64,000 nt of DNA from Eubacteriales bacterium (lineage in GTDB: Bacteria > Bacillota > Clostridia > Oscillospirales > CAG-382). A model generated the notes under the pieces. The model did not search any database. It had not been told where the DNA came from and saw only the letters and a list, made by a program, of their open reading frames with translations. The translations under genes and the position numbers were made by a program. Every line of letters begins with the position of its first letter. Within the stretch, counting starts at the first letter, position 1. This document shows, piece after piece, positions 7,148 to 36,936 of this stretch. The DNA is taken from positions 2,974 to 66,973 of the forward strand of contig JAZTXY010000086.1 in NCBI GenBank assembly GCA_045636665.1. Reading direction: 5' to 3'.

Positions 7148-8893
7148 ATGAACATCAATCAAGTATGGCCCGAATGGAACGAGGATTGCGTCCTTGGCGA
7201 GGGCTCGTTTGGTAAGGTTTACAGAGCGAAAAGAATGGAATACGGCGGAAGAGCTTTTTATTCCGCTATTAAGGTGATTTCGGTTCCGAAAAATCAGCAG
7301 GAAATCAAATTTGCCCGTTCTCAGGGTATGGATGATCAGGCGATATATAATTATTTTCGCGGCTTGGTAGATAACCTGCTTAACGAAATTACCCTGATGG
7401 ATAATTTAAAGGGTGCTAAGAATATCGTCGGTATCGAAGATTATAAAATCATCGAGCGAGAGGGAGAGATAGGCTGGGATATATTTATCCGTATGGAGTT
7501 GCTAACGCCGTTTGACAGCTTTATCTCTAATCCTGAATTTTCTCAGCTCGACGTTATAAGGTTGGGTGTTGATATTTGTACCGCGCTTGAGGTGTGTGAG
7601 CAAAACTTTATCGTTCACCGAGATATCAAGCCTGACAATATATTTATTTCCCGTTTTGGTGAATATAAGCTCGGCGATTTCGGTATTGCCAGAAAGTTAG
7701 AAACGACGCAGGCGAATCTCTCGCGCAAGGGTACGCTGAATTATATGGCACCGGAGGTCTACAAAAGCGAGGCATATAGCTCTAATGTGGATATTTATTC
7801 CTTGGGATTGGTGTTGTATACGCTATTGAATAATAACAGAATTGCGTTCCTTCCGCCTTATCCTCAACAAATAACCTACAAAGACAACGAGGAAGCATTG
7901 ACGAAGAGGCTGTCCGGTGAGCTGTTGACGCTCCCGTGTAATGCGAGCGCTTCTCTTGGTGCAGCAATCCTCAAAGCTTGTGCATACAGCCCGCAGGACC
8001 GTTATCAAACCGCTACAGAGTTCAAGAATGCGCTGATTACCGAATGGAACGTTTTGATTCAGTCGGGAGAGAATCGAGAGATTCAATCGGATTCGATGCG
8101 TTTCAGTGGTAATATGGATCAGAGACTGCAAAGCACGACCAATGATATGAATGCAAATGGAAGAGTTGTGGTTGACGAATATGTTCAAGGAACGACGGTG
8201 CTCGACCCAATGTACGGCGCGTACACGTCGGAACAGTTGCCCCCACAAAGTAATGTAATTGGCATTCCCGATACCTATTCTACTGCAAAATCGAGCAAAG
8301 GGTGCCGAATTTTTGCATGGCTGCTGTCACTTGTTGTTTGTGTTCTCGGTATTGTGCTGTTGTTTGACGGCGGAGACACTGCATTAGAATTATCGGTCGC
8401 CTTGTCATTGACAGGGCTTGGCTTGATCGTGATTATTGCCGACAGATGTAAGCTTGCGGTCGGTATTTCGGCTGTTTCGTTGTCACTTGTGTATATCGTC
8501 AGCGGACTGAACGCATTGTTTAGCGGTATGCAGGAATTGATTCCGCAAGCAATCGTTTTTATACTTTCCGGATCGTTGATGCTGTTCGGCGGCATAGTTA
8601 TTGTATCTCAGCGAGAGGTAAGGTTCGGAGGTGCATTAAGCTTATACGCTCTTATCGTCGAGTGGGTATATTACTTATATCGAATGATAAACGATGACTT
8701 TTATATTGAAGCGTGGCATATCTTTTATGGCGTCGCGGCTGTTGCGGTATTTGTATGGGCATATGGCTACAACAGCGCGTATAAACCCAAGGGAATAAAA
8801 AAGGTGTTGCATATCGCGGCTTACATATTGGCGGCTGTTGTGGCAATACAAGCAATTGTGTACCTGGTACGCCAATGTTCCGTTATTTTTTAA
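7148..8893 (+). CDS. Hanks-type Ser/Thr protein kinase with a C-terminal polytopic (about 7 TM) membrane domain
   Basis: Kinase motifs: G-loop GEGSFGKVYRA, AIKVI lysine, HRDIKPDNIF catalytic loop, DFGIA, YMAPEV. The C-terminal third (from about nt 8303) is seven hydrophobic segments. ATG 7148 sits 6 nt after agaggtg and is preferred over the ORF-track TTG 7115. Confidence 0.9.
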   Translation: MNINQVWPEWNEDCVLGEGSFGKVYRAKRMEYGGRAFYSAIKVISVPKNQQEIKFARSQGMDDQAIYNYFRGLVDNLLNEITLMDNLKGAKNIVGIEDYKIIEREGEIGWDIFIRMELLTPFDSFISNPEFSQLDVIRLGVDICTALEVCEQNFIVHRDIKPDNIFISRFGEYKLGDFGIARKLETTQANLSRKGTLNYMAPEVYKSEAYSSNVDIYSLGLVLYTLLNNNRIAFLPPYPQQITYKDNEEALTKRLSGELLTLPCNASASLGAAILKACAYSPQDRYQTATEFKNALITEWNVLIQSGENREIQSDSMRFSGNMDQRLQSTTNDMNANGRVVVDEYVQGTTVLDPMYGAYTSEQLPPQSNVIGIPDTYSTAKSSKGCRIFAWLLSLVVCVLGIVLLFDGGDTALELSVALSLTGLGLIVIIADRCKLAVGISAVSLSLVYIVSGLNALFSGMQELIPQAIVFILSGSLMLFGGIVIVSQREVRFGGALSLYALIVEWVYYLYRMINDDFYIEAWHIFYGVAAVAVFVWAYGYNSAYKPKGIKKVLHIAAYILAAVVAIQAIVYLVRQCSVIF

Positions 8894-8911
8894 TCGAGGA
8901 ATGAAACGGTT

Positions 8912-9679
8912 ATGACTTTTACGATAAATGCCGCTTGCGGCTCATTTATAGGTATGGGCCGCGGCAATAATGAGGATAATTTTTTCTTTAATAAAAAGCA
9001 TCTTCAAATCCCCAACAAGGGAATGAAAAATCCTATAAAATGCAGCAATGTCACTGATGACCCGGTCGTTTTTGCCGTTTTTGACGGTATGGGCGGAGAG
9101 AGTAAGGGCGAAGAAGCGGCTTGCTTATCGGCAGAGATTTTCGGCTCCGAATACAAAAAGCTTGAAGAGCTTGCAGTTTCGGGAAAAGCGTTTATGTACG
9201 AATGCTGTGAGAACGCTAATGCTGCGGTAAATCAGCTGAGACGCGATATGCAGCTTTCAGCGATTGGCAGTACCGTGGCGGCTGTATATTTATCTCAGGA
9301 TGATATTGTCGCTTGTAATATTGGTGACAGCAAGATATTCAGAATAAGAAGCAAGCAAATGATTCAAATTTCCGAGGATCATACCGACGAAAAAATTATG
9401 TCAGCTATCGGAATCAAAAAAAAGCCCGTTTTGCTTCAGTATATCGGTATTCCCGATACCGAAATGGCGATAGAACCCTACGTTTCGAAGGGTGTGCTTG
9501 AATCGGGAGATATATATGTTTTGTGCTCCGACGGCATAACAGATGTTATCGAGGCCTCCGAAATGTATAAAATTATCGGCGACCTTGATGCGGACGAGGC
9601 GGTAAGACAGCTTTTGACCGAGGTCGAGCGAAGAAACGGTGCAGATAATGCAACTGCGATCGTAATAAAGATAGCTTAA
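8912..9679 (+). CDS. PP2C/PPM-family Ser/Thr phosphatase
   Basis: Motifs FAVFDGMGGESKGEEAA, IGDSKIF, LCSDGITDV, GADNATAIVI. Starts 18 nt after the kinase gene. Confidence 0.88.
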   Translation: MTFTINAACGSFIGMGRGNNEDNFFFNKKHLQIPNKGMKNPIKCSNVTDDPVVFAVFDGMGGESKGEEAACLSAEIFGSEYKKLEELAVSGKAFMYECCENANAAVNQLRRDMQLSAIGSTVAAVYLSQDDIVACNIGDSKIFRIRSKQMIQISEDHTDEKIMSAIGIKKKPVLLQYIGIPDTEMAIEPYVSKGVLESGDIYVLCSDGITDVIEASEMYKIIGDLDADEAVRQLLTEVERRNGADNATAIVIKIA

Positions 9680-9694
9680 TAAGGAGAGTGCTTT

Positions 9695-36391: not shown

Positions 36392-36402
36392 TACACTATG
36401 TT

Positions 36403-36879
36403 ATGACTAATCATATTGTCGTAATAATATCGCTATTTTGTATATATTTCCACATCAGTGGCTTAGCCACAACCAATATTCTTCGCCTGACGGTGGGGAA
36501 CACAACACCGGTGCTGGCGTCAAAGTGCTATTGCGATAGCTGTGGTGCCACAATTCCTCCGCATCTGCAGTTGCCAGTCATATCTTACGTTCTTTGTAAG
36601 GGTAAATGTAAAAAATGCGGCGCTCGTATCCCGTTGTTTCCTTTGCTGTTGGAGTTAACCATCCTTTTTGGAATGTTTACAATAACCGTGCTTTTAGGAT
36701 GCACATTTTTGGCTGTTAGCCTTAGCTTTTTATTTTATGAGCTGGTCCGTATTTTAACGGTTGCCGTTTTCGGAAAACGTGCCGAGCAGTTCAAAAAACA
36801 GTACCTAATAGCGGTTTTATCAATGCTGCTATTCTATATTTTAACGTTGTTTATCGCATTGATCTATAGCTTGGTTTAA
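36403..36879 (+). CDS. Polytopic membrane protein consisting only of a prepilin-peptidase N-terminal (DiS-P-DiS, CxxC...CxxC) domain. No A24 catalytic Asp motifs; possibly a remnant.
   Basis: CYCDSCGATIPPHLQLPVISYVLCKGKCKKCGARIPLFPLLLELT parallels the PilD-type N-domain (CxxCG...IP..SY....G.C..C...I....P..El). The remaining about 70 aa are TM helices without GxGD or other Asp motifs. No Shine-Dalgarno sequence is visible upstream. Confidence 0.55.
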   Translation: MTNHIVVIISLFCIYFHISGLATTNILRLTVGNTTPVLASKCYCDSCGATIPPHLQLPVISYVLCKGKCKKCGARIPLFPLLLELTILFGMFTITVLLGCTFLAVSLSFLFYELVRILTVAVFGKRAEQFKKQYLIAVLSMLLFYILTLFIALIYSLV

Positions 36880-36902
36880 CGTTTTATTTGTCTGTTAACA
36901 AG

Positions 36903-36936
36903 AAAAGCCATCCAATCGGTTGGCTTTTTGTTTTTA
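36903..36936 (+). terminator. Rho-independent terminator closing the 37-kb co-directional block
   Basis: 8-bp stem aaaagcca / tggctttt (36903-36910 and 36921-36928) with a 10-nt loop, followed by tgttttt. Confidence 0.65.

Follow-up and report, generated by a model that had tools for sequence, protein, structure and literature searches.

A Tad/Flp pilus and a type VII secretion system (T7SS) encoded in a single run of genes raise the question of whether the two constitute one apparatus, operate as two machines under shared control, or are neighbours without functional coupling. Here the question is addressed for a 64,000-nucleotide stretch of contig JAZTXY010000086.1 from a Eubacteriales bacterium, referred to throughout as the window.

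Architecture of the gene array

The ORF list and Pfam scans revealed 26 co-directional + strand genes in succession between 7148 and 36879, as claimed in a sequence-only reading of this DNA, and no credible - strand gene in the interval, where all - strand ORFs overlap domain-matching + genes. Intergenic distances range from -8 to 155 nt; the largest gaps, 136 nt between tadA and tadZ and 155 nt between the second WXG100 gene and that of a 773-residue protein, and the 4-nt overlap of essC and yukD, are as originally described. The start of the Ser/Thr protein kinase (STPK) gene at 7148 is backed by an identical 581-residue protein in a public database. The essC gene starts with a TTG at 24787, preceded by a ribosome-binding site 6 nt upstream, and its product begins MVVNLIK as in relatives; a GTG at 24778 fits less well. 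The block closes with an intrinsic terminator at 36903..36936 (+ strand; -13.6 kcal/mol, z = -3.8, then a U tract), followed by the near-consensus promoter of the next gene (36981-37009; TTGAAA-17-TATAAT). Both elements had been proposed, and the folding energy, U tract and promoter sequence bear them out.

The block had been described as headed by a kinase and a phosphatase. These do lead the 26-gene supercluster, but the co-directional array extends upstream beyond the first base of the window. Its upstream members are a giant ORF open from the first base to 4892, a LytTR-family response regulator gene (5011..5721, +; Response_reg and LytTR domains) and a histidine kinase gene (5718..7025, +). 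The first of these (1..4892, +; frame open from base 3) is the 3' part of a gene, starting upstream of the window, for a giant Ig-like surface protein with a C-terminal transmembrane (TM) anchor (TseI-like), which displays weak Big_13 and Big_3_3 matches and phmmer scores of up to 1295 bits against the giant proteins that close Tad-only loci. This giant gene also precedes the LytTR, histidine kinase and STPK genes in the related loci L169 and L170, and the LytTR regulator occupies the equivalent position in L169, L170 and L171. The histidine kinase is a polytopic GHKL enzyme (HATPase_c_5; six predicted TM segments), an agr/com-like partner of the regulator.

The TsxD-like STPK (7148..8893, +; Pkinase, 129 bits), with approximately six predicted C-terminal TM helices, looks active from its sequence, as the GEGSFG, AIK, HRDIKPDN, DFG and APE motifs and the catalytic residues are all intact. 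Catalytic residues are likewise intact in the TsxF-like PP2C/PPM phosphatase (8912..9679, +; PP2C_2, PP2C and SpoIIE matches), which contains the metal-binding motifs DGMGG, SDG and DN.

The Tad half is a complete pilus system

The genes that follow, all on the + strand, encode a complete monoderm Tad/Flp (type IVc) pilus system. The TadA/CpaF secretion ATPase (9695..10933; T2SSE, 204 bits), 76-83% identical to TadA of Tad-only loci, is succeeded by TadZ (11070..12125), which combines an atypical receiver domain (TadZ-like_ARD, 156 bits) with a ParA-like ATPase (AAA_31). The platform proteins are TadB (12143..12997; four TM segments), whose T2SSF match of 22.6 bits is slightly below the cut-off and whose position is conserved in 53 loci, and TadC (13001..13879; T2SSF, 44.7 bits). 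The Flp-type major pilin (13932..14150; Flp1_like, 56 bits) and the TadV prepilin peptidase, which comprises the A24 catalytic domain only (14225..14902; Peptidase_A24, seven TM segments), precede a WG-repeat protein with an N-terminal TM segment (14913..16274; WG_beta_rep), a conserved member of Clostridial Tad loci found after TadV in 75 loci. The remaining components are a large pilin-like protein that contains Flg_new repeats and whose N-terminal segment is hydrophobic (16291..17673; TM residues 16-34), a DUF5702 protein in the TadG-like position (18423..20171; DUF5702, 53 bits; conserved in 39 loci), a TadE-type pseudopilin fused to Flg_new repeats (20175..22253; TadE, Flg_new_2 and Flg_new), and two small N-terminally anchored partners with no Pfam match (17726..18403, TM residues 6-24; 22272..22982, TM residues 8-26).

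The secretion half resembles T7SSe

The secretion genes, also on the + strand, begin with the EssC/TsxC ATPase (24787..29370; TIGR03928, 1038 bits against a cut-off of 778; two FtsK_SpoIIIE domains), whose N-terminal FHA domain is canonical, the phosphothreonine-binding residues GR, SxxH and NG being present. It is followed by the YukD/EsaB ubiquitin-like protein TsxB (29367..29618; YukD, 27.4 bits, cut-off 27) and by the WXG100 proteins TsxA1 (29633..29941; WXG100, 58.8 bits; TIGR03930) and TsxA2 (29959..30258; WXG100, 54 bits), the latter matching the 'pore-forming ESAT-6 family' NF035934 with 117 bits (cut-off 100). The 773-residue lipoprotein (30414..32735; lipobox LFVGC) travels with the T7SS module: its counterparts downstream of the second WXG100 gene are 57% identical in the T7SS-only locus L094 and 53% identical in L041; the L092 protein at this position carries Big_2. 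A WXG-like helical/coiled-coil protein (32787..33419; NWQG), a possible Lap-type partner, has homologues in the equivalent place in type B, type C (see below) and T7SS-only loci. Beyond the adaptor J2, described below, lie a single-TM protein with a C-terminal zinc ribbon (34601..34894; Zn-ribbon matches, TM residues 8-26), which is like TseK, described as one TM helix plus a zinc ribbon (PMC11217815); a candidate T7SS substrate whose N-terminal region is helical and whose hydrophobic C-terminus is rich in Gly and Ala (34927..36108; TM residues 312-330), weak homologues of which occur after J2 and the zinc-ribbon protein in L008, L042 and L091; and a DUF4176 protein (36101..36391; DUF4176, 95.6 bits), a frequent T7SS-locus companion that adjoins toxin-like genes in many EssC loci. 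The final gene (36403..36879) encodes a stand-alone 4-TM protein with the N-terminal domain (two CxxC motifs) of prepilin peptidases (A24_N_bact, 45.8 bits); it has no homologue in related loci and is possibly an immunity protein or a pilus accessory.

All initial gene labels were upheld except two. The candidate substrate had been termed LXG-like, and profile scans returned no LXG match. The secretion genes had been classed as minimal T7SSb-like; EssA, EssB and EsaA are absent from the module, and its composition matches instead the published T7SSe list (PMC11217815): two WXG100 proteins, YukD, FHA-EssC, kinase, PPM phosphatase and DUF6382-FHA protein, together with the zinc-ribbon single-TM protein and the giant Ig-like protein. 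As the module matches T7SSe, the kinase, phosphatase and DUF6382-FHA proteins are known T7SS accessories. The suggestion that no system of this composition had been described holds only in part. The accessories are published, and Garrett, Higginson & Palmer (2024) report that Tad genes 'always' adjoin T7SSg and T7SSh, leaving the meaning open (PMC11217815). Tad genes nested in a T7SSe-like cluster of gut Clostridia, however, are absent from that work and were not found elsewhere in the searchable literature.

Two adaptors of different lineage

Two genes of the block encode DUF6382-FHA adaptors. J1 (22988..24712, +; DUF6382 and FHA matches), at the junction of the two halves, consists of DUF6382, a Pro/Gln-rich linker, two ETTVL motifs and an FHA domain, while J2 (33422..34585, +; Pfam matches) comprises DUF6382, a zinc ribbon and an FHA domain. 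The N-terminal domains of J1 and J2 are only 20% identical. J1 is the Tad-lineage copy, orthologous to the adaptor of Tad-only loci; J2, which displays 40-42% identity to the adaptor of the T7SS-only loci L092-L094, is the T7SS-lineage copy. In both FHA domains GK replaces the canonical GR. The duplicated ETTVL before the FHA domain of J1 is conserved in ~85 orthologues, including those of Tad-only loci, and resembles the ETTS switch of GarA/OdhI. An AF2 model of DUF6382 (pLDDT 93.8) returned Foldseek matches to the N-domain of TraF from the pIP501 conjugation system, the best structural match, and to the MviN/Rv3910 pseudokinase and YukC/EssB; the domain thus models as an EssB-like pseudokinase. 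The structure of the MviN/Rv3910 pseudokinase has itself been solved in complex with the FHA domain of FhaA.

Conservation and exchange of modules

Related loci were gathered with J1, and counts refer to the best 80 species-level loci. In 23 of the 80, J1 is immediately followed by EssC in the same orientation, and the adjacency is thus not unique to this genome; Tad genes are present in every J1-centred locus that has upstream DNA. In the J1 tree the 23 Tad-T7SS loci group as a single clade that spans Lachnospiraceae, Acutalibacteraceae and 'Ruminococcus' MAGs; at least 23 Lachnospirales/Oscillospirales species share the conserved array. The linkage is, however, clade-specific: Tad genes occur without a T7SS in the other 57 loci, and of 42 EssC relatives whose available upstream DNA spans 6 kb or more, only one has Tad genes as neighbours. 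Each machine clearly works without the other. Conservation of the layout in at least 23 related species makes the pairing look selected rather than accidental.

An accessory tail, consisting of DUF6382-FHA, PP2C, kinase, two small proteins and the giant Ig protein, follows the Tad genes in the 57 T7SS-less loci and the T7SS genes in Tad-less loci. A common framework (two small genes, the giant gene, LytTR, histidine kinase, STPK, PP2C, TadA, TadZ and onward) is found in type D (L169) and type C (L170) loci and in L171. Type D proteins are 72-83% (TadC), 53-82% (WG), 51-65% (J1) and 66% (STPK) identical to those of the window, whereas type D EssC is only 27-32% identical and has a TadZ/ParA-like protein alongside (T7SSf-like). 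In type B loci the Tad genes are more distant and EssC is 63-64% identical to that of the window; the L044 EssC is ~36-40% identical. The divergent EssC of type D beside a conserved Tad framework indicates that at least two EssC lineages occupy one slot.

It might be argued that the adjacency reflects no coupling at all, the two clusters being alternative cargo, or neighbours, of one ICE family, joined by recombination in one lineage and then inherited, with the kinase, phosphatase and FHA proteins serving one machine. Indeed, in the stand-alone Tad loci (L085-L088) and in the stand-alone T7SSe-like loci (L092-L094 and L097) alike, the cluster immediately follows a tyrosine integrase gene, with 47-57% identity among the integrases; there is also a homologous XRE regulator gene, preceded by MobL, TraG, VirB4-like, sortase and CHAP genes. 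The fusion could thus have arisen by accident in a mobile-element slot common to both clusters. As the fused loci constitute a single clade, much of the conservation could be inheritance, and both machines mostly occur alone. This explanation is possible, although we consider it doubtful. The exchange of EssC proteins ~30% identical in one slot of a 51-83% identical Tad framework is unexpected from passive inheritance. Furthermore, the window STPK has its closest relatives (45-49%) among kinases encoded next to EssC in T7SS-only loci, but in the window this T7SS-type kinase and the phosphatase are encoded ahead of the Tad genes, with the entire Tad block between the STPK and essC; and of the two duplicate tails one is gone, so that two J adaptors are accompanied by only one kinase/phosphatase pair.

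The integrase and conjugation genes adjoining both stand-alone forms, and the TraF N-domain as best structural match of DUF6382, would also fit an accessory of a conjugative element, in which pilus, giant adhesin and T7SS stabilize mating pairs and manipulate competitors or recipients, rather than a chromosomal colonization or competition locus. This is very improbable, as housekeeping genes (PGA_cap, MatE, GalT, CoaX and GlgB) flank the array on its 3' side, composition is uniform in the window, and no conjugation genes were seen in the available flanks of the fused clade.

A composite envelope-spanning apparatus had also been envisaged; in such a machine T7SS substrates could, for example, be exported along or through the pilus base, or EssC could export pilus-associated proteins. 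The tight nesting of the gene sets, the TadZ-like ATPase in the T7SS module of type D relatives and in published T7SSf (PMC11217815), and the stand-alone prepilin-peptidase N-domain protein that closes the T7SS half could be taken to favour such a machine. We regard it as very improbable: each gene set has the full complement of its family and is found without the other in most genomes, fusion proteins and shared structural components were not found, and divergent EssC modules can replace one another, which speaks against close structural co-adaptation.

Transcription signals

The hairpins inside the 26-gene block were correctly described as devoid of U tracts. The wider array contains three strong hairpins, all lacking U tracts: a 15-bp hairpin 3' of the giant gene (4913..4946, +; -27.9 kcal/mol, z = -6.9), with a similar hairpin in L169 and L171; a 15-bp hairpin 3' of flp (14163..14196, +; -32.6 kcal/mol, z = -10.6), which has strong counterparts in 59 related loci (median -25.4 kcal/mol) and is likely an mRNA 3'-end stabilizer or partial stop; and a 12-bp GC-rich hairpin 3' of the WXG100 pair (30270..30298, +; -22.2 kcal/mol, z = -5.1). 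Shuffled sequence yields terminator-like matches at least as often as the block does. Promoter-like elements are located in front of tadZ and essC. Given the three hairpins and these internal promoters, the array is probably not one simple transcript.

The gap before tadZ contains a direct-repeat box, TTTTTTACA-N12-ATTTTATCG (10939..10968, +), with half-sites 21 bp apart and a -10 element TATTAT at 11001-11006 within a promoter-like match (10979-11006). The box, the sole match to a relaxed pattern within the 64 kb, marks a candidate LytTR-dependent tadZ promoter. It is kept in the pre-tadZ gap of L169, L170 and L171, and occurs before stpk in L169 and L170 but not upstream of stpk in the window. 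In L001, L002, L003, L005, L006, L007 and L008 it precedes yukD/essC. At the essC promoter site relatives contain the full box, with spacing and -10 element matching those of the window, whereas the window junction retains only half: the proximal half-site TTATTACA and, 26 nt downstream, a TG-extended -10, TGATAGAAT (24720..24762, +; promoter-like match 24734-24762), a candidate essC promoter.

The uninterrupted junction had been read as a sign of co-expression. No terminator was found between the Tad and T7SS halves, but as a conserved promoter-like element directly precedes essC, any co-expression is more likely to occur via shared regulation than by read-through alone. Both the lack of a terminator and, in relatives, the same box before tadZ and essC/yukD argue against adjacency without coupling.

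Discussion

The best reading of the locus is two machines under shared control, not one apparatus. On balance, we think it somewhat more probable than otherwise that this is a composite locus of a gut Clostridia genome in which a Tad pilus and a T7SSe-like T7SS (FHA-EssC, YukD, two WXG100 proteins, lipoprotein, helical partners, a candidate membrane-active substrate and DUF4176) are both gated by one shared two-tier control layer. In the transcriptional tier the LytTR/histidine kinase pair (5011-7025) would drive the internal promoters bearing the 21-bp-spaced direct-repeat box. In the post-translational tier, proposed from domains and motifs, the STPK (7148) and PP2C (8912) would set the phosphorylation state of J1 and J2, each an apparent EssB-like pseudokinase joined through a disordered linker to an FHA domain. 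Phosphothreonines may be recognized by EssC, through its canonical FHA domain, and by J1 and J2 through theirs, jointly gating pilus assembly via J1 and T7 export via J2 and EssC. The outcome would be attachment and toxin export under common conditions, such as contact with neighbouring cells, with the giant Ig-like surface protein as a possible sensor. Weighing against this reading are the restriction of the linkage to one clade, the integrases shared by the two stand-alone forms, the half box at the essC junction and the boxless stpk upstream region of the window, the GK in the FHA domains of J1 and J2, and the probable division of the array into more than one transcript.

Pieces of this layout were described in 2024 (PMC11217815). 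This study adds a clade-wide Tad-T7SS array in which EssC lineages ~30% identical exchange in one slot, an accessory tail common to Tad-only and T7SS-only loci, the EssB-like model of DUF6382, the conserved duplicated ETTVL of J1, and the direct-repeat box shared by tadZ and, in relatives, essC. There are precedents for such an arrangement. In the Esr pathway of Actinomycetes a surface Ig-repeat sensor, a kinase, a phosphatase and an N-domain-linker-FHA output control Esx. The Kil system of Myxococcus is FHA-rich and Tad-like, and kills on contact.

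Organization of the array

Between 7148 and 36879 the window carries 26 consecutive genes on the + strand, an uninterrupted block that a sequence-only reading of this DNA had described correctly; each - strand ORF of the interval overlaps some + strand gene with a domain match. Intergenic distances across the block range from -8 to 155 nt, and the largest gaps (136 and 155 nt) and the 4-nt overlap of essC and yukD were found as claimed. The order of Pfam matches is Pkinase, PP2C, T2SSE (TadA/CpaF), TadZ-like_ARD with AAA_31, two T2SSF, Flp1_like, Peptidase_A24, WG_beta_rep, Flg_new, a product with no match, DUF5702, TadE with Flg_new, a further product with no match, DUF6382 with FHA (the junction protein J1, 22988-24712), FHA with two FtsK_SpoIIIE (EssC), YukD, two WXG100, a lipoprotein and a WXG-like coiled coil (neither with a match), DUF6382 with a zinc ribbon and FHA (J2, a paralogue of J1, 33422-34585), a TM protein with a zinc ribbon, one product with no match, DUF4176 and A24_N_bact. 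The predicted terminator at 36903-36936 (-13.6 kcal/mol, z = -3.8, U tract after the stem) and the promoter of the next gene (TTGAAA-17-TATAAT, 36981-37009) both stood up to analysis. Terminator-like matches inside the block did not exceed their frequency in shuffled sequence. The 3' flank in the window consists of housekeeping genes (PGA_cap, MatE, GalT, CoaX and GlgB).

The block had been viewed as a supercluster headed by a kinase/phosphatase pair. The pair is present (STPK, 7148-8893; PP2C, 8912-9679), but the array itself begins further upstream, outside the window. Upstream of the pair, and on the same strand, are the genes of a LytTR response regulator (5011-5721) and of a GHKL histidine kinase that is polytopic (5718-7025), and before these an ORF that is already open where the window begins and ends at 4892. 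Its product has a C-terminal TM anchor and weak Big_13 and Big_3_3 matches, and aligns with the giant (>2000 aa) Ig-like proteins of related loci with up to 1295 bits. Two of these loci from other genomes or metagenomes (designated L), L169 and L170, share the head of the array, which runs small gene, small gene, giant gene (2204-2823 aa), LytTR, HK, STPK, PP2C, TadA, TadZ, TadB, TadC, Flp, TadV and WG; in L171 the same head is visible from a 984-aa ORF onward. The giant Ig-like gene (L169:1-7743; L170:1085-7699) is a member of the same conserved array, and the two small ORFs that precede it in L170 encode possible TseH/K-like proteins.

The window carries a monoderm Tad/Flp (type IVc) pilus system with all the features for which it was searched. 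These comprise a TadA/CpaF-type ATPase (9695-10933; T2SSE, 204 bits), a TadZ/CpaE protein (TadZ-like_ARD, 156 bits, with AAA_31), TadB and TadC with four TM segments each (T2SSF, 22.6 bits, just under the cut-off of 25.2, and 44.7 bits, respectively), an Flp-type pilin (Flp1_like, 56 bits), a dedicated A24 peptidase without a methyltransferase domain (14225-14902; Peptidase_A24 alone) and a TadE-type pseudopilin (TadE domain at 20175-22253). That peptidase, TadV, is also without the N-terminal zinc-binding domain of prepilin peptidases, and the last gene of the block (36403-36879) encodes a stand-alone 4-TM protein consisting of only this domain. Among the related loci examined no homologue of the protein was found; it may be a peptidase domain that has split off, or may confer immunity to the product of the toxin-like gene before it.

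Gene content of the secretion module

Type VII secretion systems (T7SSs) have been divided into subtypes a-j (Garrett, Higginson & Palmer 2024, Microlife, PMC11217815). With 1038 bits, the EssC of the window exceeds the cut-off of 778 set for TIGR03928, an NCBI equivalog model; the YukD match is 27.4 against a cut-off of 27, and of the two WXG100 proteins the second exceeds the cut-off of NF035934. The description of the module as a minimal T7SSb was not sustained, as EssC, WXG100 and YukD are present but EssA, EssB/YukC and EsaA had no Pfam or NCBIfam match among the 26 genes. The only EssB-like item in the array is a soluble fold, the DUF6382 domain.

The components of T7SSe, in contrast, are nearly all represented. 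TseA1, TseA2, TseB and TseC with a phosphothreonine-competent FHA are present, as are the membrane kinase TseD and the PPM phosphatase TseF, both with intact catalytic motifs. J1 (22988-24712) and J2 (33422-34585) are counterparts of TseJ (DUF6382 and FHA), the zinc-ribbon protein at 34601-34894 is that of TseK (a single TM and a zinc ribbon), and a putative TseI is the giant Ig-like protein, of which the window covers the part up to 4892 with the C-terminal TM, the N-terminus being encoded further upstream. The position expected for TseH, a small single-TM protein, is likewise upstream of the window, and two small ORFs occupy it in L170. Since all T7SSe components but TseH have counterparts, that of TseI being a putative one, and EssA, EssB and EsaA are lacking, the module is, by gene content, T7SSe-like rather than a minimal T7SSb. 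The closest stand-alone relatives of its EssC (L092-L094; 69-72% best-segment tblastn identity) carry the T7SSe gene set. Of the features of T7SSg and T7SSh, Pfam returned neither DUF5050 nor EspG, and EssC has an FHA domain (60 bits). The T7SSf feature TsfV, a TadZ-like ATPase, is absent from the T7SS half of the window, where the sole TadZ lies within the Tad block and a kinase, which T7SSf lacks, is present; certain relatives, termed type D below, do carry TsfV.

The product of 34927-36108 had been labelled LXG-like, a label that Pfam and NCBIfam did not support, as neither LXG nor any other family matched. It is a 393-aa protein with a helical N-terminus and a Gly/Ala-rich hydrophobic C-terminus, encoded next to the DUF4176 gene, and from these features it looks like a membrane-active T7SS substrate.

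Conservation of the junction and exchange of EssC

J1 was aligned with its homologues and the profile was used to scan one genome per GTDB species, which yielded 202 relatives; the analysis continued with the best 80 loci. These come from Lachnospiraceae, Acutalibacteraceae/Oscillospirales, 'Ruminococcus', Clostridium and others, the nearest relatives bearing the labels Acetatifactor, Ruminococcus, Lachnospiraceae and Acutalibacteraceae. When all ORFs of the best 80 of the 202 were searched with the window proteins, Tad genes lay 5' of J1 in every locus having upstream DNA. The genes that follow differ. Type A (57 of the best 80) lacks a T7SS and reads Tad ... TadV, WG, J1, PP2C, STPK, small, small, giant-Ig protein. 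The window-like type C (10 loci) has the order J1, EssC, YukD, WXG, WXG ... J2, zinc-ribbon protein; type B (four loci) has J1, PP2C, EssC, YukD, WXG, WXG; and the T7SSf-like type D (nine loci) has J1, J2, TadZ/ParA-like, YukD, EssC, WXG. The loci named as type D are L001-L006, L009, L011, L016 and L053. Ruminococcus sp. CAG:488 carries a relative of type B, and Tad-only loci occur in isolates that include Ruminococcoides intestinale CLA-JM-H38 and Clostridium lacusfryxellense DSM 14205. Types B, C and D make up 23 of the best 80 J1 loci, showing that the Tad/EssC adjacency is not confined to one genome. In a neighbour-joining tree of J1 the EssC-linked loci form one clade, type A being the rest, and the clade with the fused array covers two orders. 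Three MAG contigs with Clostridia-type Tad/T7SS arrays are titled Bacteroidaceae (L007, L046) or Eggerthellaceae (L024); these labels probably reflect mis-binning, horizontal transfer being less likely.

It could be argued that essC is hidden beyond the 10-kb flank of the Tad-only loci. Three checks led us to reject this possibility: where the giant gene ends within a type A locus, unrelated genes follow (ABC transporter, HMA protein, DUF3592); upstream of tadZ there are integrase and mobile-element genes; and profile HMMs for EssC, YukD, WXG100 and DUF4176 gave only FHA cross-matches to J1. The heads of type A loci (for example L085:9709-9984) carry a small XRE-type regulator, not the LytTR two-component system of the fused clade.

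Identities to the window's proteins vary independently in the two halves of the array. In type D (ranges excluding the outlier L053) TadC is 72-83%, WG 53-82% and J1 51-65% identical to its window counterpart, with EssC at 27-32%; the kinase of L169, the single type D relative looked up, is at 66%. The reverse holds for type B, where TadC is at about 57%, WG at about 36% and J1 at 40-44%, with EssC at 63-64% and no kinase seen. In L044 the values are 47% for WG, 50% for J1 and 36-40% for EssC; TadC and the kinase were not seen. On these identities the evolution of the T7SS module within the EssC-linked clade is separate from that of the Tad framework, and the slot directly downstream of J1 is occupied by at least two, and probably three, lineages of EssC.

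An accessory gene set shared by separate machines

A scan of metagenomes with an EssC alignment recovered 80 loci at 36-72% identity. In 42 of them the sequence reached 6 kb or more beyond the 5' end of essC, and a single one of these, the type B locus L091, contained a Tad block. In L092-L094 the order is EssC, YukD, WXG, WXG and a 691-818-aa protein (with Big_2 in L092 and a homologue of p773 in L094), then J2, PP2C, STPK and two small genes, followed by the start of another large ORF; a p210-like gene precedes J2 in L092 and L093. The tail of these T7SS-only loci (J, PP2C, kinase, two small proteins and a large ORF) has the same gene order as that of the Tad-only loci, and the accessory set regarded as T7SSe 'core' is thus seen as a portable cassette. 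As judged by gene order, the set occurs behind Tad alone (57 of the best 80 J1 loci), T7SS alone (the published T7SSe) or both (the clade of the window). This suggests that the T7SSe core components J, F, D, H, K and I are a signalling cassette that accompanies Tad at least as often as T7SS, a view that, if right, would alter the definition of these T7SS subtypes. A more specific reading is offered tentatively and may well prove wrong. The tail of pseudokinase-FHA adaptor, PP2C, kinase, two small membrane proteins and giant Ig-like protein would be a portable contact/threat-sensing cassette, pluggable behind different envelope machines, and in the window one kinase/phosphatase pair would fire attachment and T7 toxin export together.

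The possibility that the kinase and phosphatase at the head of the array are Tad-lineage copies was rejected, as they are only 23-33% identical to Tad-only copies. Kinases that adjoin EssC in T7SS-only loci are the closest to that of the window, sharing 45-49% identity across the kinase domain and, in the case of L122, 35% over 544 aa, against about 33% for Tad-only kinases. LytTR regulators adjoin EssC in L098, L107, L123 and L132. With a kinase of T7SS type, and LytTR beside EssC elsewhere, it follows that T7SS-type regulators and the T7SS core bracket the Tad genes of the window.

Putative regulatory elements

The window kinase retains GEGSFG, the AIK lysine, HRDIKPDN, DFG and APE, and ends in about six predicted TM helices; the PP2C retains its metal-binding aspartates. 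From these residues both enzymes look active. The FHA domain of EssC has the canonical GR, SxxH and NG residues, and in the FHA domains of J1 and J2 GK replaces GR. An AlphaFold model of the J1 N-domain (pLDDT 93.8, pTM 0.90) found its best PDB matches (E = 1e-5 to 1e-3, TM 0.5-0.7) in the pIP501 TraF N-domain, the MviN/Rv3910 pseudokinase, Bacillus subtilis YukC/EssB and Staphylococcus aureus EssB, the MviN/Rv3910 entries including a structure in complex with the FHA domain of FhaA. On the predicted fold DUF6382 is a pseudokinase, and these matches would make the J proteins soluble EssB-like pseudokinases tethered to FHA.

Immediately 5' of the FHA region J1 carries a duplicated motif, (N/G)ETTVL ... 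GETTVL (residues 454-471; window 24347-24400), with its paired threonines at residues 456/457 and 468/469. The motif is kept in nearly all of about 85 J1 orthologues (L001-L084), those of Tad-only loci included. In the FHA regulators GarA and OdhI a phosphorylated N-terminal ETTS motif binds the protein's own FHA domain and acts as a switch. In the Esr pathway, phosphorylation of the output protein EsrG takes place in the linker ahead of its FHA domain (PMC13622651). By analogy, we infer that ETTVL is a candidate phospho-switch similar to those of GarA/OdhI and EsrG.

A second candidate element is a box of roughly 30 nt, TTTTTTACA-N6-GGTC-G-N-TTTT(G/A)AC(A/G), with half-sites 21 bp apart and a (TG-extended) -10 located 25-27 nt downstream. 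In the window it lies 5' of tadZ (10939-10968) and is the sole match to the relaxed pattern in 64 kb. It recurs 5' of tadZ in L169, L170 and L171, 5' of stpk in L169 and L170 (L169:9903 and 13817; L170:14269; L171:13837), and 5' of yukD/essC in L001, L002, L003, L005, L006, L007 and L008 (L001:13872; L002:13894; L006:13846; in L008, the J1-essC gap). The J1-essC gap of the window has only the proximal half-site (24720-24727) and a -10, TGATAGAAT (24754-24762), at the conserved spacing. Outside three conserved positions the strict regular expression matched at about the shuffle rate, and for this reason only positionally conserved boxes were used as evidence. The classic site of LytTR regulators consists of two 9-bp direct repeats with a 12-bp spacer, and the architecture of the shared box makes it a candidate site of this kind. 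The TadA-TadZ gap also holds, at 10988-11052, three exact copies of GCATATAT (10988, 11021 and 11045), repeats that are not conserved in L169-L171.

Very stable hairpins without a U tract follow the giant gene (4913-4946, -27.9 kcal/mol), flp (14163-14196, -32.6 kcal/mol) and the WXG100 pair (30270-30298, -22.2 kcal/mol). The hairpin behind flp has counterparts in 59 related loci, with a median of -25.4 kcal/mol. Transcripts for the most abundant products are probably stabilized, or in part terminated, by these structures.

Shared control or neutral adjacency

These elements would fit a scheme with two tiers. At the transcriptional tier the LytTR two-component system would act on the boxes before tadZ and essC; at the post-translational tier the single kinase/phosphatase pair would act on J1, J2 and the EssC FHA. 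On the more tentative reading of a portable sensing cassette, the pair would work through the ETTVL switch of J1 together with the FHA domains that J2 and EssC carry, and cell contact would set off pilus-mediated attachment and T7 toxin export at the same time.

It could be argued, however, that the fusion arose by accretion in a mobile-element slot and is functionally neutral. Each machine is mostly found alone, and both stand-alone forms lie directly downstream of homologous tyrosine integrases (47-57% identity), at a distance of about 0.3-1.5 kb from the start of the cluster in L085-L088 (Tad-only) and in L092-L094 and L097 (T7SS-only); it is this shared neighbour that suggests accretion. 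Homologous XRE regulators (about 49% over 39-51 aa) adjoin L085 and L092/L093, and MobL, TraG (T4 coupling protein), VirB4-like, sortase and CHAP genes precede the stand-alone clusters, which may be cargo or preferred neighbours of one ICE family. Neutral adjacency accordingly deserves serious consideration, although we regard it as rather improbable. Pointing to a real link are the conservation of the array across a clade of two orders, the replacement of the T7SS module in situ, the nesting of one machine within the genes of the other, the reduction to one kinase/phosphatase pair and the shared box. On balance we lean, with little more than even confidence, towards two complete machines that are co-regulated under one control system. 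The further suggestion that Tad and T7SS build a composite, envelope-spanning apparatus did not fare well: the best-supported reading is of two machines, and a single physical Tad/T7SS apparatus is very improbable.

Comparison with known systems

The occurrence of kinase, phosphatase and FHA proteins with T7SS, and of Tad beside some T7SS subtypes, was already known in 2024, and the array does not constitute a new category. Several points appear to be new: the variant in which Tad and T7SSe-like genes are nested, and its range among uncultured gut Clostridia; the replacement of one EssC lineage by another in situ; the finding that the accessory cassette serves Tad-only loci as well; the ETTVL motif; the common promoter box; and the association with integrases. 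The sequence-only reading knew of no described system with this composition. This holds for the nested array, as no description of a Tad-T7SS array in gut Clostridia was found in PMC11217815 or elsewhere in the searched literature, but not for its parts or the Tad adjacency, which were published in 2024. A 2011 survey of Gram-positive type IV pili leaves FHA, kinase and FtsK genes unmentioned.

T7SSg and T7SSh, which are 'always encoded adjacent to' Tad genes (PMC11217815), resemble the window in having a T7SS beside a full Tad gene set. They differ in an EssC without FHA, in accessories such as the DUF5050 propeller TsgL and the EspG-like protein TshG, and in their hosts, Acetivibrio and Paenibacillus; in the window FHA is part of EssC, and the two halves are connected through the kinase/phosphatase/FHA set. 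Whether the adjacency in T7SSg/h reflects shared regulation, shared function or coincidence was left undecided, because too few genomes were available (PMC11217815). The present locus and its relatives in uncultured gut Lachnospirales/Oscillospirales provide a much larger and more diverse set with which to address this question, and offer as handles a conserved junction protein for which a phospho-switch is predicted, a single kinase/phosphatase pair, the common promoter box and natural EssC 'swap' variants. If the coupling is real, abundant gut commensals would combine adhesion with contact-dependent antagonism.

The description of T7SSe is based on isolates of Bacillota, Neobacillus among them, and makes no link to Tad (PMC11217815). 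T7SSe shares with the window two WXG100 proteins, a YukD-like protein, an FHA-EssC with phosphothreonine-binding residues, a Ser/Thr kinase in the membrane, a phosphatase of the PPM family, DUF6382-FHA, a zinc-ribbon protein with one TM and, as far as its C-terminal part in the window shows, a giant Ig-like protein anchored at that end. In contrast with T7SSe, the window has a complete Tad locus between the kinase/phosphatase pair and essC, two DUF6382-FHA paralogues and a LytTR two-component system in the array, and a kinase with about six TM helices instead of one. T7SSf, which includes a TadZ-like ATPase and for which no other Tad genes are reported (PMC11217815), has DUF6382-FHA, a PPM phosphatase, YukD and FHA-EssC in common with the type D relatives, whose T7SSf-like module sits 3' of the same Tad framework as in the window. 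The T7SS half of the window, however, is without the TadZ-like ATPase, and its EssC is only 27-32% identical to those of type D.

Pseudokinases partnered with FHA domains are also found in the EssB/YukC-EssC FHA pair of T7SSb and the mycobacterial MviN(Rv3910)-FhaA pair, both pseudokinases being matches of the DUF6382 model. While EssB and MviN reside in the membrane, J1 and J2 are soluble and each has its own FHA; in T7SSb, contact between EssB and EssC is believed not to depend on phosphorylation (PMC11217815). Esr of Actinomycetes (Wang et al. 2026 preprint, PMC13622651) combines a surface filament of Ig-like repeats with a Ser/Thr kinase and a phosphatase, often adjoins T7SS genes and regulates them. 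The layout of its output protein (N-terminal pseudo-enzyme domain, disordered phospho-threonine linker, C-terminal FHA) is paralleled by J1. The resemblance is one of architecture and extends to the kinase, the phosphatase, the FHA output and the Ig repeats alone. None of the MoxR, vWA and transglutaminase domains of Esr was matched by Pfam in the array; the N-domain is a predicted pseudokinase in the window but a pseudophosphatase in Esr, the phylum is another, and the window module is also attached to Tad. Kil of Myxococcus xanthus, finally, is a Tad-type machine amid FHA-domain proteins that mediates contact-dependent killing, for which an FHA-based signalling cascade was proposed (Seef et al. 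2021, PMC8460266). It differs in belonging to a diderm, in having a secretin and no T7SS, and in carrying FHA on the ATPase itself. If the accessory set is indeed a portable contact-sensing cassette, the array of the window would give Gram-positive bacteria an equivalent of T6SS and Kil, which are likewise triggered by contact.
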